NCBI GenBank assembly: GCA_049969195.1 | Contig: JBMFPI010000001.1 | Location: 1-33,600 of the forward strand | Source of the DNA: Armatimonadota bacterium | GTDB taxonomy: Bacteria > Armatimonadota > UBA5829 | Direction: 5' to 3' | DNA length: 33,600 bases | Shown here: in pieces, positions 2,558 through 32,114 of the stretch | Layout of the letters: the number at the start of each line of letters is the position of its first letter | Numbering within the stretch: position 1 is the first letter of the stretch | Position numbers and translations under genes: made by a program | The notes under the pieces: model-generated | What the model saw: only the letters and a program-made list of their open reading frames with translations | The model's database searches: none | What the model was told of the DNA's origin: nothing

Positions 2558-2629
2558 GGGATTGCTGCGATATAACGCAAATCCGGCGTTTTCGGTGATT
2601 TGACGCTCCTGTGCTGCGGGAACTCAGCC
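2558..2629 (-). repeat. palindromic intergenic element (PE) copy A, half/decayed
   Basis: GGGATTGCTGCGATATA-ACGCAAATCCG-GCGTTTTCGGTGAT-TTGACGCTCC... matches the bulge-bearing arm plus centre of the family in inverted orientation. The second arm is not recognisable. Confidence 0.55.
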
Positions 2630-2701
2630 TCCCGCACATCCGGTGGGCGAGTGCGACATAGCCGTTCCCACAGCACGCAGGAGGATAGGTGCCTGTAGCA
2701 C

Positions 2702-2766
2702 AAAAAAAAGACACCCGCCCCGTATGCCCGTTGACACGACGGAGTCATCGGCACGGAGCAGGTGTC
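2702..2766 (-). terminator. rho-independent terminator of groES-groEL
   Basis: On the minus strand about 18 nt after the groEL stop. A ~14-bp GC-rich stem (GACACCTGCTCCGT / ACGGGGCGGGTGTC, two G:U) is followed directly by T8 (A8 at 2702-2709 on +). Confidence 0.7.
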
Positions 2767-2783
2767 CGGGTTGCTACGTCTTG

Positions 2784-4412
2784 CTACATGTCGTAGCCGC
2801 CCATTCCGCCGGGCCCACCCGGGGTCGCCGGGGTCTTCGGCTCGGGCTTTTCAGCTATCAGAGACTCCGTAGTGAGGATCAGCGACCCAATCGATGCAGC
2901 ATTTTCGAGCGCGCTCCGAGTGACCTTCACTGGGTCGACGATTCCGGCTTTCACGAGGTCCTCGTATTTCTCCGTGAGGGCGTTGAAGCCGATACCCTTC
3001 TTCTCGCTCTTCACACGCTCGACGACCACGCTGCCCTCGTAGCCAGCGTTCTCCGCGATCTGTCGAAGCGGCTCCTCAAGCGCGCGGCGCACGATCTGAG
3101 CACCGACCTTCTCATCCGGGTCATCGCCGATATTCTCGAGCTTCGGCAGTATGTTGACGTAGGTCACACCACCGCCAGCAACGAGGCCTTCCTCAATTGC
3201 CGCGCGAGTCGCGGACAGGGCGTCCTCGAACCGGTGCTTCTTCTCTTTGAGCTCGGTCTCGGTAGCCGCACCGACCTTGATCACTGCAACGCCGCCTGAG
3301 AGTTTGGCCAGACGCTCCTGGAGTTTCTCGCGGTCGTAGTTGGAATCGGTAGTCTCGATCTGCTTCCTGATCTGAGCGATTCGGCCCTGAACGGCCTCCG
3401 CGCTGCCCTTGCCCTCGATTATGGTGGTGTTCTCCTTGTCGATTACCACCTTCGCAGCACCGCCCAGCATCGACATGTCGACGTTCTCGAGCTTGATGCC
3501 GAGGTCCTCAGAGATAAATGTGCCACCGGTGAGAATGGCAATGTCTTCCAGCATCGCCTTCCGCCTGTCACCAAAGCCAGGAGCCTTCACAGCAGCGGCT
3601 TGCAGCGTGCCTCTCAGCTTGTTGACGACGAGCGTCGCAAGCGCGTCGCCCTCAACGTCCTCGGCGATGATCAGAAGCGGCTTCCGGGTTTGCGCGATCT
3701 TCTCCAGCAACGGAATCAGATCAGCCGCAGCGGATATCTTCTTCTCGTGGATCAGGATGGCCGGGTTCTCCAGCACCGCCTCCATCCGCTCACCGTCGGT
3801 GACAAAGTAGGGCGAGATGTAGCCCTTGTCAAATTGCATGCCCTCGACGACCTCGAGCGTTGTCGCGGTGCCCTTAGATTCCTCAACGGTGATAACGCCG
3901 TCCCGACCGACCTTGTCGATCGCGTCGGCAATGACACTACCGATCTCGGGATCGTTGCCGGCAATCGAGGCTACTTGTGCGACCTCCTCCTTACCGTGCA
4001 CGGGGATCGCAAGCTTCTTGATCTCCTCGACCGCCTTCTCCACCGCCATCTCAATGCCACGCTTGACGGCTATCGGATTGCCGCCGGCGGCCACGTAGCG
4101 AAGTCCCTCGCGAACGATGGATTCGGCAAGAACGGTGGCAGTAGTTGTTCCATCGCCGGCTACGTCGTTTGTCTTCGACGCTACCTCGCGAACGAGCTGG
4201 GCACCCATGTTCTCATACGGATCCTCGAGCTCGATCTCCTTGGCAACGGTGACGCCGTCCTTGGTAATGGTGGGGCTGCCCCACTTCTTGTCCAACACGA
4301 CGTTGCGACCCTTGGGGCCGAGTGTCACCTTGACCGCGGCGGCTACCGCGTTGGCACCTCGCTCCAGGGCCCTTCGGGCTTCTTCGTCGAACTTGATTAT
4401 CTTAGCTGCCAT
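2784..4412 (-). CDS. groEL: chaperonin GroEL (Cpn60)
   Basis: 542-aa ORF: [19 protein letters not shown]..., [15 protein letters not shown]-type C-terminal tail ([11 protein letters not shown]). GAAGGAGGG RBS upstream of the ATG. Confidence 0.99.
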
Positions 4413-4509
4413 AGAATACCCTCCTTCGGAAGAGTCGGAAGTCAGAAGTGAGCGCTAAATATATCACGAAGAGAGGCACTTGATCTTCGCACCCGACTTT
4501 CGACTCCGT

Positions 4510-4794
4510 TTATGTCTTTATCGCGTAGATTGAATCCTGATCGAGGATGACATATTCCTTGCCATCGACCGTGACCTCAGTGCCGGCGTACTTGGCGTAG
4601 ATCACCCTGTCTCCCTCCTTGACAGCCATCTCGCCGCGAGAGCCGTCATCGAGGACTTTCCCGGGGCCTACAGCGACCACAATCCCCTCCTGCGGCTTCT
4701 TCTTGGCAGTGTCGGGCAAGATGATCCCGCCGGGGCTCTTTTCTTCCTCCTCTAGCGGTTCGACGACCACCTTGTCACCCAGGGGCTTGATCAT
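4510..4794 (-). CDS. groES: co-chaperonin GroES (Cpn10)
   Basis: 94-aa [47 protein letters not shown], immediately upstream of groEL. CAGGAGGTG RBS. Confidence 0.98.
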
Positions 4795-4860
4795 TGTGCT
4801 GTGTCACCTCCTGTATGAATTTTGAAAGTCAGAGGCTGCGGAGACATCCTCCGCGGGCCG

Positions 4861-4887
4861 TTAGCACTCTCCACTCTCGAGTGCCAA
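4861..4887 (-). promoter_or_regulatory. CIRCE operator (HrcA binding site)
   Basis: TTAGCACTC-N9-GAGTGCCAA, one mismatch to the CIRCE consensus TTAGCACTC-N9-GAGTGCTAA. It lies 67 nt upstream of the groES start, between the promoter and the RBS. Confidence 0.85.
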
Positions 4888-31295: not shown

Positions 31296-31334
31296 AGCTC
31301 ACGGGTCGGAACGAGATCAACACGAGGCAAATGA

Positions 31335-31357
31335 GGGCCGGGCAACACACCCGGCCC
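31335..31357. terminator. hairpin between convergent hcp and cytochrome c genes
   Basis: GGGCCGGG-CAACACA-CCCGGCCC (8-bp GC stem). T-tracts are weak on both strands. Confidence 0.45.
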
Positions 31358-31394
31358 TTGCACTTGAATAATAGTCAGCGCCCTGCCCTCTGGG

Positions 31395-31733
31395 CTACTT
31401 GGTGGGCTTGCTCTTCGGGTCGCCGGGCAAAGTGCCGGCCTTGATCTCCGCGATGTTGGAGAACTTGTCTTTGTCGGCGTCCTTTTGCTCGATCGCCTTC
31501 AGCGAGGCGGCCTCGACCTTCTTGCCCTTCAGCAGCTGGCCGTACGGGTTAAGGCCTTTCTTGCCGGCGGTATCCAGGTGGCAGACTGCACACCTGGCCT
31601 TCTTGATCGCTCCGTTCGGCTTCGGCGCGTAGCACTCGTTGAAGACCTTGAACCAGGCAAGCGTCGCAAATGCTGACCCGATGGCCAGCAGTACGCCCGC
31701 TGTCACAAGCACTCCGATGCCAATCTTCCTCAA
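31395..31733 (-). CDS. membrane-anchored mono-haem c-type cytochrome
   Basis: TTG start with AAGGAGG 7 nt upstream. N-terminal TM helix, a single CAVCH (CxxCH) motif, and a DADKDKFSNIAE EF-hand-like loop. Confidence 0.75.
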   Translation of the reverse strand: MRKIGIGVLVTAGVLLAIGSAFATLAWFKVFNECYAPKPNGAIKKARCAVCHLDTAGKKGLNPYGQLLKGKKVEAASLKAIEQKDADKDKFSNIAEIKAGTLPGDPKSKPTK

Positions 31734-31801
31734 GATTCAACCTCCTTTTCCACTCAGACAGCACGCCGGACAGCCGAGCCTCTGTCAGCGATCCGACATG
31801 A

Positions 31802-31832
31802 CAGGCTCTTGCGATAGGCGCGTTTTGGGCGA
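31802..31832 (+). repeat. PE copy K (left arm; a decayed remainder may extend to ~31916)
   Basis: CAGGCTCTTGCGATAGGCGCGTTTTGGGCGA. Downstream GGCTGAGGTGGCGCA and TAGCGACGAGG weakly resemble the bulge and distal arm. Confidence 0.55.
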
Positions 31833-32017
31833 TGCGCCCGTCCACTGCCCATCGTCCGGGGCCTTGCTACTCCGGCTGAGGTGGCGCAGGCACCGCGCCC
31901 GCATCTAGCGACGAGGCCGTACATTATCTGGGACCGGCTATGTGCTGGCTTCCTTCATGCCCCACGGCCCTGACTTGCCGATCCACGCCGTTGCGCGGCC
32001 GCGATCAAGCCCTATCC

Positions 32018-32114
32018 GCCCTTGCCGCGTAGTTTTTCGGCCCAGCCATTGTCGCGGCTCAGAAGCGTCGAGTCGACGAAAGCGCCGGCTTTGCGTCCTA
32101 TCGCAATAATCTCA
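32018..32114 (+). repeat. PE copy L (full, left arm shortened)
   Basis: CCCTTGCCGCGTAG-TTTTTCGGCCC-AGCCATTGTCGCGGCTCAGAAGCGTCGAG-TCGACGAAAGCGC-CGGCTTTGCGT-CCTATCGCAATAATCTCA. Confidence 0.75.

Follow-up and report, generated by a model that had tools for sequence, protein, structure and literature searches.

Why does one stretch of an Armatimonadota genome carry the same sequence of about 100 bp again and again between unrelated genes? The initial annotation of the window (the whole stretch of DNA analysed here, 33,600 nt) described a family of long-hairpin intergenic repeats and left two readings side by side, a lineage-specific MITE-like element and a structured RNA module.

Profile and covariance-model (CM) searches of the window detected nine full copies, one badly degenerate copy and two left halves, a count that covers one 33.6-kb contig of the MAG. 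The nine full copies, each of which had already been listed as near-full in the initial annotation, were recovered with nhmmer E-values of 1e-16 to 1e-26 and scores of 63 to 113 bits (CM R1). Further, the 17-mer arm occurred six times in the window within three mismatches, compared with 0.04 expected, and a 33-nt degenerate pattern of the right end occurred five times, compared with 0.00 expected. The repeat family is thus real and far above chance. Its members are as follows.

2558-2632, minus strand: copy K, degenerate (nhmmer 2559-2618, E 7e-12; CM 42.8 bits), in the convergent spacer between a doubtful ORF (2174-2575, plus strand) and groEL (minus strand); preservation is good over the right ~60 nt, from the centre through the inner right arm and bulge to the outer right arm, and most of the left arm is gone (deleted or degenerate in the CM alignment).
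5172-5270, plus strand: copy A, full length (E 1.5e-23; 92 bits; fold z -0.49), in the divergent groES/tspO spacer.
5323-5419, plus strand: copy B, full length (E 2.8e-19; 78.6 bits; hairpin kept, z -2.88), oriented like A and 52 nt downstream of it, with the tspO start 62 nt further downstream.
5968-6069, plus strand: copy D, the best preserved (E 1.7e-26; 112.6 bits; fold -48.7 kcal/mol, z -6.15), in the convergent tspO/PD-(D/E)XK spacer.
9990-10033, minus strand: left-half fragment, model positions 1-44 (E 2.4e-5, iterated 2.1e-6), in the TPR1/GT2 spacer.
10077-10174, minus strand: copy E, full length (E 3.4e-22; 87.6 bits; fold z +0.71), directly 3' of a conserved sigma-70-like promoter (10048-10076), with the GT2 start 43 nt downstream of the copy.
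15905-16002, minus strand: copy F, full length (E 1.9e-19; 76.6 bits), between a gene for a 507-aa hypothetical protein and a radical-SAM gene.
18562-18656, plus strand: copy G, full length (E 3e-21; 86.6 bits), in the yggS/sepF spacer, upstream of the conserved sepF leader.
19284-19375, plus strand: copy H, right terminus eroded (E 5.6e-22; 84.5 bits), in the sepF/proC spacer, just past a conserved hairpin located after the sepF stop codon.
24027-24124, plus strand: copy I, full length (E 1.2e-24; 97.3 bits; hairpin kept, z -2.29), with the alr stop 36 nt before it.
31803-31844, plus strand: left-half fragment, model positions 1-42 (E 1.6e-4, iterated 5.4e-6), in the convergent hcp/clostripain spacer.
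32020-32114, plus strand: copy J, full length (E 1.4e-16; 63 bits), with a strongly diverged left half and 63% identity to the consensus; the clostripain stop lies 52 nt away.

Six decayed or half copies had also been proposed, and three of them (2558-2632, 9990-10033 and 31803-31844) were recovered. The iterated --max nhmmer search gave no match at 4925-5035 or 9830-9912 and only E = 2.2 at 14231-14248; the remarks that elements designated E0 and F begin 1 nt and 10 nt after stop codons fall with these unsupported copies.

The repeat unit is ~95-102 bp long. The copies total 1020 nt, or 19% of the ~5.3 kb of non-coding DNA in the window, rather than the quarter of ~4.5 kb estimated before. 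They were described as wholly intergenic, which is correct except for 3 nt of the tspO stop codon, formed by the first three bases of copy D, whose overlap with the stop had been noted, and 17 nt of the doubtful ORF. Both orientations occur, with eight copies on the plus strand and four on the minus strand, and the copies are spread over 30 kb with unrelated single-copy genes between them. In three spacers a pair of copies is found (A with B, 9990 with E, 31803 with J), and all three convergent spacers of the window contain repeats. Some copies lie within apparently co-transcribed clusters (e.g. yggS-sepF-proC) or directly after stop codons. The GC content of the copies is 0.50-0.59, and thus they are not AT-rich. 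No reading frame was consistently open across the copies, consistent with the earlier statement that none carries an ORF, and no tRNA or Rfam gene was found within them; a scan of the window found no promoter pattern inside the copies. Likewise, we found no transposase domain in the window, as had been reported, and neither an integrase nor a HUH Y1 (RAYT) transposase was found there. The window also carries three tandem paralogous TPR/PMT_2 genes.

The consensus of the family is a near-perfect hairpin of 102 nt (DNA dG -38.9 kcal/mol, z = -9.2), with stems of 17 bp at the termini, 16 bp in the inner part and 5 bp at the apex, and with ~11 nt bulged out on one side, in agreement with the architecture of outer arm, inner arm, centre, bulge and outer arm that had been described initially. 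Its termini, T-N-AGGYTGTTGCGATAG ... CTATCGCAACARCCTCA, pair at 16 of 17 positions. Copy D retains the perfect 17-bp terminal inverted repeat (TGAGGTTGTTGCGATAG / CTATCGCAACAACCTCA) and the 10-bp inner stem attributed to it. The description as a long hairpin holds for the consensus and for copies D, B and I, but not for the other six full copies, which fold no better than shuffled sequence (z of single copies, +0.71 to -6.15). Across the copies, 73.4% of cells pair, which equals the mean of the shuffles (257 of 500 scored as high). Pairs with changes on both sides numbered seven versus 8.1 expected, the covariation score was 0.216 compared with 0.212 for shuffles, and RNAalifold predicted no consensus structure from the copies.

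Pairwise identity among the copies is 43-74% in a star-like pattern, with a divergence of ~25% from the consensus and no near-identical pair in the set. Conservation was similar in the arms (0.71-0.83), the centre (0.73) and the bulge (0.68). The initial annotation had correctly noted that loop and bulge are conserved like the stems; common descent predicts this, and it is not a sign of motif selection. The variance of column conservation was 2.9 versus 2.05 +/- 0.27 in a simulation of neutral decay; conservation is therefore close to neutral decay yet modestly over-dispersed (~3 sd), and there may be weak constraint at some positions. A single master sequence of ~100 nt, an almost perfect hairpin, gave rise to all copies, which have since diverged about evenly over their length with no selection for pairing, and their pattern looks like the roughly neutral decay of this palindromic master with no selected RNA structure. 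The hairpin in the copies is inherited from the master copy and is now decaying, and the copies look old and inactive.

These results bear on whether the repeats are a functional cis-acting RNA or DNA module under selection across many transcription units, for instance a leader, a site of protein binding or of processing in operon spacers, or a 3' hairpin that stabilises mRNA. Several features would suit such a role: the copies located in apparent co-transcribed clusters or just after stops, the position of copy E, with a conserved promoter-like site on one side and the GT2 start on the other, the very stable hairpins of the intact copies and the slight over-dispersion described above. We nevertheless consider it very unlikely, because covariation is absent, pairing is at the level of shuffles, the fold has been lost in six of the nine full copies, the copies lie in both orientations relative to transcription, and the same genes and spacers of close relatives work with no element. 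The structured RNA module proposed initially is not supported on the same grounds. The Rfam search suggested in the initial annotation gave no match in the window at the gathering score and, at E <= 5, only an unrelated mir-981 match at 26454-26526, outside the copies. An Rfam-type structured RNA was accordingly rejected, since there was neither a match to a curated model nor compensatory change above shuffles. Intrinsic (Rho-independent) terminators were rejected as well: a scan of the window for a stem plus T run flagged 26 sites, all of them outside the copies, and the sequence 3' of the elements is not T-rich, so that the earlier view that these are not generic terminators stands.

We compared the loci with those of related genomes. 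The closest relatives found, with SepF 89-90% identical, have no copies in their fetched loci. Four orthologous spacers could be compared (those of E, F, G and H), and all are short and repeat-free in this lineage (L006-L009, L052). The TPR1/GT2 spacer is 101 nt in L052 versus 388 nt in the window; at site E the conserved flanks align right up to the end of the element and the site is empty, and the stretch 9990-10033 is missing. At site F (507-aa hypothetical gene/radical-SAM gene), the spacer is 66 nt without a repeat in L008 versus 249 nt in the window. The yggS/sepF and sepF/proC spacers, which hold G and H in the window, have no repeat in L008, L010 or L011. At the site of D, the tspO and PD-(D/E)XK genes of the relative L051 overlap and hence leave neither spacer nor repeat. 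No copies were found in 38 JGI loci fetched with a SepF query. The CM scan of related genomes that had been suggested, covering 424 kb (window plus fetched loci), detected copies beyond the window only in GCA_026415535.1, a further relative with two copies at sites non-orthologous to those of the window. One of them (L010:800-895) was included in the model, whereas the other (L051:2108-2208) is an independent CM match (E 5e-7); they adjoin rSAM/yggS and rSAM-SPASM/tRNA synthetase.

Since the spacers are empty in the closest relatives and GCA_026415535.1 has its copies elsewhere, the copies arose by insertion and not by local duplication. Segmental duplication or gene conversion at one locus, with no transposition, could be suggested by the fact that all known copies of this genome lie on one 33.6-kb contig, by the pairs of copies in three spacers and by the tandem TPR/PMT_2 paralogues. 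However, only the ~100-bp unit is repeated and never its flanks, unrelated single-copy genes lie between the copies over 30 kb, both orientations occur, and a different genome has copies beside other genes. We regard local duplication as extremely improbable.

The copies are probably what remains of a palindromic, non-autonomous transposable element of ~100 bp, of the MITE/REPIN class, in one Armatimonadota lineage. The family is lineage-specific and belongs to a known kind of mobile element. The MITE-like reading of the initial annotation is borne out by descent from one master with terminal inverted repeats, by interspersion between unrelated housekeeping genes, by the empty orthologous spacers, by the other sites in a second genome and by the lack of matches in Rfam, plasmids, phages, JGI metagenomes and viral contigs. 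In this explanation, the element would have spread through the intergenic DNA of the lineage, moved in trans by a transposase presumably encoded elsewhere in the genome, and would have inserted into spacers that tolerate it. Effects on neighbouring genes would be a by-product: D supplies the tspO stop, and E is situated between the GT2 promoter and start codon.

MITEs are shorter than 500 bp, have no coding capacity and possess terminal inverted repeats of ~4-30 bp and flanking direct repeats that fade with age (PMC10969869). The Armatimonadota family has the small size, lack of coding capacity and terminal inverted repeats of this class, and its sites are occupied in one genome and empty in others. 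A systematic search for target-site duplications of 2-9 nt at varied boundary offsets gave nothing above chance (the best 2-mer was present in 4 of 11 copies), and survival of a duplication is not expected at a decay of ~25% per site.

Elements of this kind that form a hairpin over their whole length include Correia/NEMIS in Neisseria, ERIC/IRU in enterobacteria and RUP in pneumococci. The Armatimonadota family resembles them in being ~100 bp long and non-coding, in its terminal inverted repeats, which measure 17 bp in this family, in its interspersed intergenic location in both orientations and apparently frequent co-transcription with neighbours, in an ancestral sequence that folds as a long imperfect hairpin, and in its presence or absence between related genomes. 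It differs in being GC-rich, whereas typical MITEs are AT-rich. Correia elements duplicate a TA target; by contrast, no duplication is detectable in the ~25%-decayed copies. Further, the family has no sequence similarity to anything searched: searches of plasmids, phages, JGI metagenomes and viral contigs with the repeat gave no match, and a repeat-pattern scan of genome contigs gave chance matches only. The host phylum differs as well, and Armatimonadota were not mentioned in the 20 top-ranked papers of a literature search. The copies are also old (43-74% pairwise identity), with no known partner IS. Palindromy over the whole length is less suggestive of an internally deleted IS than of REPIN-like or Correia/ERIC-like elements.

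As the mover we tentatively favour a DDE-type IS transposase that would recognise the 17-bp terminal inverted repeats and act by cut- or copy-and-paste. A less likely candidate is a single-copy HUH tyrosine transposase (RAYT or TIRYT, a relative of IS200/IS605), which would have moved the whole hairpin as single-stranded DNA, with vertical inheritance and slow turnover. REPINs mobilised by RAYTs (Bertels & Rainey, 2011, PMC3116915; PMC3337134) likewise consist of inverted arms around a short spacer in a hairpin of ~100 nt, are extragenic, occur as half-elements and in clusters, lack target-site duplications and appear to reside for long in one lineage. The ancestral Armatimonadota element is similarly palindromic throughout, with its inverted arms on either side of a short loop; target-site duplications were not seen, half-elements ("singlets") and the three same-spacer clusters are present, repeats lie in all three convergent spacers, and the copies are GC-rich. 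However, a REP unit is an imperfect palindrome of 20-40 bp with an unpaired GTAG (or CGTC) head (PMC3733652), whereas the arms here (TGAGGTTGTTGCGATAG, GCGTTTTCGGCGA) are not self-complementary short palindromes. The arm motif reads GATAG in most copies and GTAG in H and J alone, and in the consensus fold the bases of the central CGTC are paired. The loop is also conserved like the arms (centre 0.73), unlike the conserved arms and variable spacer of REPINs, the eight plus and four minus copies show no strand bias, and the window has no Y1 transposase.

Comparable long-inverted-repeat families are known outside Proteobacteria: Di Nocera et al. (2013) described moderately abundant ones that flank tyrosine transposase genes, e.g. 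in Acidobacteria (PMC3733652). These TIRtrons/TIRYT families resemble the Armatimonadota repeats in being unrelated to GTAG REPs, in that some are self-complementary and arranged in dimers or clusters, and in their occurrence in non-proteobacterial phyla. The GGGGWSAS motif of several such repeats is absent from the Armatimonadota consensus.

A stronger version, which we consider rather improbable, is a REPIN-like resident population whose single-stranded hairpin would be copied by a domesticated transposase, tyrosine or other, present as a single copy, during long vertical inheritance. In the yggS-sepF-proC-divIVA division cluster and upstream of the glycosyltransferase genes, some copies might then have been recruited as hairpins of leaders or operon spacers. 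If this were true, long-term association of the REPIN/RAYT type between element and host would also exist in a phylum that branches deeply and is mostly uncultured, and the arm sequence would be new and lack the GTAG head.

Integron attC sites are also imperfect palindromes of ~100 nt with a one-sided bulge. In attC sites, structure is conserved rather than sequence, and they flank promoterless cassettes arrayed beside an integron integrase. This candidate was rejected, because the Armatimonadota family keeps its sequence by descent while its structure decays, its neighbours are housekeeping genes (groESL, sepF, proC, alr) and the window has no integrase.

The family opens no new mechanism or question. 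It adds a previously uncatalogued interspersed repeat to the poorly studied phylum Armatimonadota, serves as a lineage marker and as a handle for finding the responsible transposase, and provides a clean case in which conserved hairpin repeats should not be taken as structured RNAs without covariation. Knowledge of it also helps in the assembly and annotation of MAGs, because the copies give rise to falsely extended ORFs and can contribute stop codons (D does so for tspO).

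The repeat family in the window is real. Its 17-nt outer arm, with three or fewer mismatches, occurred six times against 0.04 occurrences expected. A profile HMM built from the nine near-full copies that the initial annotation had assigned to one family recovered all nine (E 1e-16 to 1e-26), and the copies scored 63-113 bits with a covariance model (CM) of the repeat. The consensus is TGAGGCTGTTGCGATAGGCGCGTTTTCGGCGATTCTCCCGCTCAGTCGAGGAGCGTCGAATCGCCGAAAACGCCGGGTTTGCGTTCTATCGCAACAACCTCA, with the element ends TGAGGYTGTTGCGATAG ... CTATCGCAACARCCTCA, and it agrees with the architecture originally described. 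Six further copies had been listed as decayed or half copies. Three of these were retained, at 2558-2632, 9990-10033 and 31803-31844; those at 4925-5035, 9830-9912 and 14231-14248 were not detected by the profile, even when it was iterated with all filters off.

Copies of the repeat in the window
5172-5270, plus strand, full copy A
5323-5419, plus strand, full copy B
5968-6069, plus strand, full copy D
10077-10174, minus strand, full copy E
15905-16002, minus strand, full copy F
18562-18656, plus strand, full copy G
19284-19375, plus strand, full copy H
24027-24124, plus strand, full copy I
32020-32114, plus strand, full copy J
2558-2632, minus strand, degenerate copy K, right half good and left arm degenerate
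9990-10033, left half, from the profile search
31803-31844, left half, from the profile search

The copies total 1,020 nt of ~5.3 kb of non-coding DNA (19%), where roughly a quarter of ~4.5 kb had been estimated. As first noted, they are intergenic, none lying within plausible genes, and both orientations occur (8 plus, 4 minus). They occupy all three convergent spacers in the window, one divergent spacer and five co-directional spacers, and three spacers each contain two copies in the same orientation. Adjoining the half copy at 9990-10033 is a stretch of ~160 nt past the TPR1 stop codon (9830-9989), which has no match to the repeat profile and no counterpart in L052, a locus of the closest lineage; it may represent a second insertion or a copy in an advanced state of decay.

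The consensus, folded as DNA, forms an almost perfect hairpin of -38.9 kcal/mol (shuffles, -17.3 +/- 2.3; z = -9.2) whose terminal, inner and apical stems measure 17, 16 and 5 bp and which carries a bulge of ~11 nt on one side. Three of the full copies folded clearly better than their shuffles (z -6.15 for D, -2.88 for B, -2.29 for I); the other six (A, E, F, G, H and J) gave z values of +0.71 to -1.08. Because RNAalifold predicted no consensus structure across the copies, the 30 pairs of copy D were imposed on an 11-sequence alignment. The proportion of pairing cells (73.4%) equaled the mean of column shuffles, 257 of 500 of which were as high, pairs changed on both sides numbered 7 against 8.1 expected, and the covariation score was 0.216 against 0.212. 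Pairing and covariation were therefore at the level of shuffles, and the two arms have drifted independently. Thus, the hairpin is ancestral and is not maintained. The initial annotation had offered a structured RNA module as one reading, and this is not supported: covariation is absent, most full copies have lost a stable fold, and the suggested Rfam scan matched the copies to no family, whether at gathering score or at E <= 5.

The loop and bulge had also been described as conserved like the stems. The observation holds (outer arms 0.71 and 0.74, inner arms 0.83 and 0.76, centre 0.73, bulge 0.68), and this near-equal conservation throughout indicates common descent from one master of ~100 nt and no selected motif. 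Each copy shares 63-86% identity with the consensus, and pairs of copies share 43-74% in a star-like pattern. Further, the variance of column conservation (2.9) was close to that of a neutral star-decay simulation (2.05 +/- 0.27), with modest over-dispersion.

Syntenic loci of relatives were fetched via SepF and TPR homologues. In the closest lineage (ENA and JGI contigs L006-L009, L013, L014 and L052; SepF 89-90% identical, G+C 61-63%), no copy was present in any locus fetched. The spacer between TPR1 and the family-2 glycosyltransferase gene (GT2) is 101 nt there versus 388 nt in the window, the hyp507/radical-SAM spacer is 66 nt versus 249 nt, and the yggS/sepF and sepF/proC spacers lack the element. 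At site E, both flanks align well with L052, which passes straight into the window sequence 3' of the copy. A sigma-70-like promoter with an extended -10 (10048-10076; TTGACC-17-TAGACT), conserved in L052 upstream of GT2, stops exactly at the start of copy E, which was inserted directly 3' of the -10. In the more distant GCA_026415535.1 (SepF 86% identical, ~51% G+C), the corresponding sites are also empty, and tspO overlaps the convergent nuclease gene. This genome carries copies elsewhere.

Copies in GCA_026415535.1
L010:800-895, between the radical-SAM gene and yggS
L051:2108-2208, between radical-SAM/SPASM and tRNA synthetase genes, an independent CM match (E 5e-7)

These empty orthologous sites, together with the copies at other positions in GCA_026415535.1, mean insertion of a mobile unit. 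Local duplication, which the initial annotation had named as a reading that would lessen the interest of the family, is ruled out by the same pattern. None of the 38 JGI loci retrieved via SepF contained a copy, and a CM search over 424 kb (all fetched loci and the window) found copies only in the window and GCA_026415535.1; judged from these sequences, this would mean a strong expansion of the element in the window's lineage. The CM gave no gain over the HMM except for a weak, generic 64-nt palindrome in a distant relative (L047:3103-3167), matched on both strands (E 0.03 and 0.08) and dismissed as probably an unrelated hairpin.

A non-autonomous transposable element moved in trans is the account with the best support. 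Common descent, terminal inverted repeats, interspersed intergenic copies and decay without structural selection are established, as are the empty orthologous sites and the occupation of a second genome at different sites. The lineage-specific, MITE-like reading proposed at the outset is supported by the terminal inverted repeats and the insertion pattern, and the repeat is a new lineage-specific element of a well-known kind. No target-site duplication was found at the copies in the window contig, where a duplication of 2-4 bp would be erased because divergence is ~25% per site. The element terminus GGCTGTTGCGATAG has a putative resemblance to IS6-family ends (GGCACTGTTGCAAA), but the absent 8-bp duplication argues against such a relationship. 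For the inferred enzyme, we lean towards a DDE-type IS transposase that would recognise the 17-bp ends, which would make the repeat a classical MITE (definition in PMC10969869). The main rival is a hairpin or single-strand route by an HUH tyrosine transposase, either of the REPIN/RAYT kind (PMC3116915, PMC3337134) or resembling the families of inverted repeats associated with TIRYT in non-proteobacterial phyla, as described by Di Nocera et al. (PMC3733652). Palindromy over the whole length, the lack of a target-site duplication, the half-elements and clusters and the GC-rich copies would all suit the HUH route; however, the arms lack the palindromic form of REPs with its unpaired GTAG or CGTC head, and the spacer is conserved as much as the arms.

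An attC site is excluded, since the repeat keeps its sequence while its structure decays and its neighbours are housekeeping genes with no integrase. A terminator or a tRNA-derived element was rejected, since no copy contains a terminator-like pattern (or a promoter-like one) and no tRNA-like gene was found in the copies. No similar sequence was found in PLSDB plasmids or GenBank phages, and JGI metagenomes and IMG/VR gave 0 matches for a 33-nt degenerate pattern that fits five window copies. GTDB species-representative genomes were scanned with TTTGNNNNCTATCGCAAYAAYCTCA, a 25-nt pattern matching three window copies; the window sites were not returned, the source species being absent or masked, and the two matches (a 44%-GC proteobacterial MAG and a 35%-GC Legionellales MAG) were due to chance, as agreement was limited to the 25 nt. 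As initially annotated, the copies carry no ORF: no frame is consistently open across them, and the translated consensus found nothing among 5.8 billion predicted proteins. A limited literature search returned no mention of Armatimonadota among its 20 best-ranked matches, which does not prove absence.

Several copies touch neighbouring genes. The tspO stop codon is the first three bases of copy D, and the TspO C-terminus lies within two residues of that of its orthologue. The position of copy E, past the GT2 promoter-like site and before the start codon, would on sequence grounds make it part of the GT2 5' UTR, with the transcript starting inside the element. Copies G, H and I are inside apparently co-transcribed clusters. 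Because relatives manage without the copies, such effects are tolerated and not selected.

The window, which exact-sequence look-ups showed to be an entire MAG contig of 33,600 bp, has a G+C content of 59% and ordinary gene content; its proteins in GenBank include MGC8861138.1 (GroEL), MGC8861144.1, MGC8861150.1 (SepF) and MGC8861154.1.

Genes in the window
groES-groEL, tspO, PD-(D/E)XK nuclease, 37-kD nucleoid-associated protein
three tandem TPR/PMT_2 paralogues around a family-2 glycosyltransferase; radical-SAM gene
yggS-sepF-proC-divIVA, CAAX protease, FAA hydrolase, alr, degT, gpsA
sulfatase, GFO/IDH/MocA oxidoreductase, hcp, clostripain-like peptidase

The window contains no transposase, as first reported, and no integrase or reverse-transcriptase domain, unannotated ORFs at E <= 1 included. 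Exact-protein look-ups found only a sister MAG (GCA_049703575.1) and an ENA contig, which cover the same loci and match the window at 99.4-100% identity over shared stretches. The sister MAG is very fragmented (contigs of ~2 kb). The idea that its contigs break at the repeats was wrong: one runs across copies G and H and differs from the window only by a run of N. Searching for paralogues of the TPR/PMT_2 protein led to orthologous loci of relatives and no further contigs of the window genome.

The three tandem paralogues (8204-14221; ~540 aa) flank GT2 on both sides, have an N-terminal PMT_2-like glycosyltransferase region and C-terminal TPRs, and share 70-76% DNA identity across several hundred nt; the arrangement is kept in L051 and L052. 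The PD-(D/E)XK nuclease ORF (6120-7424, minus strand) is listed with 434 aa. Its orthologue in L051 (311 aa) begins at residue 124 of this ORF, and the true gene probably spans 6120-7055. Since its synteny is kept in relatives free of the repeats, the gene is unlinked to them. Upstream of groES is a near-consensus promoter (4891-4920, minus strand; TTGACA-18-TAGAAT, 11/12 matches). A strong GC-rich hairpin with a T tail (5102-5124, plus strand; CCCTCTCCCGCAAGGGGAGAGGG) shares the divergent spacer with copies A and B, and a same-strand gene upstream of it is not obvious.

Directly 5' of sepF is a non-coding leader of ~85 nt (18710-18796; GGTGCGCGAACGTCAGGGATTCGGAGTGGNCGCCCAGCACCCAACCATGACTTGCACC...ATGGGAGGGTC), strongly conserved in several Armatimonadota lineages (L008:3458-3545, L010:1741-1828; also L015, L016, L017, L021 and L023); the yggS-sepF spacer outside it is unalignable. 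In the predicted fold, CACCC/CCAT is paired with the Shine-Dalgarno-like ATGGGAGGG, the sequences being too alike to show covariation. The conserved stretch has no Rfam match and may serve as a translational leader or as a cis-regulatory RNA. The yggS frame extends ~10 codons beyond the TAG stop position of L008, L010 and L011, which is changed in the window, and this C-terminal extension (18415-18448) is lineage-specific. Directly 3' of the sepF stop, a hairpin (GGAGCCGACGCAAGAGTCGGATCCTC; 19250-19280) is kept in L008, L010 and L011, and copy H begins immediately 3' of it.
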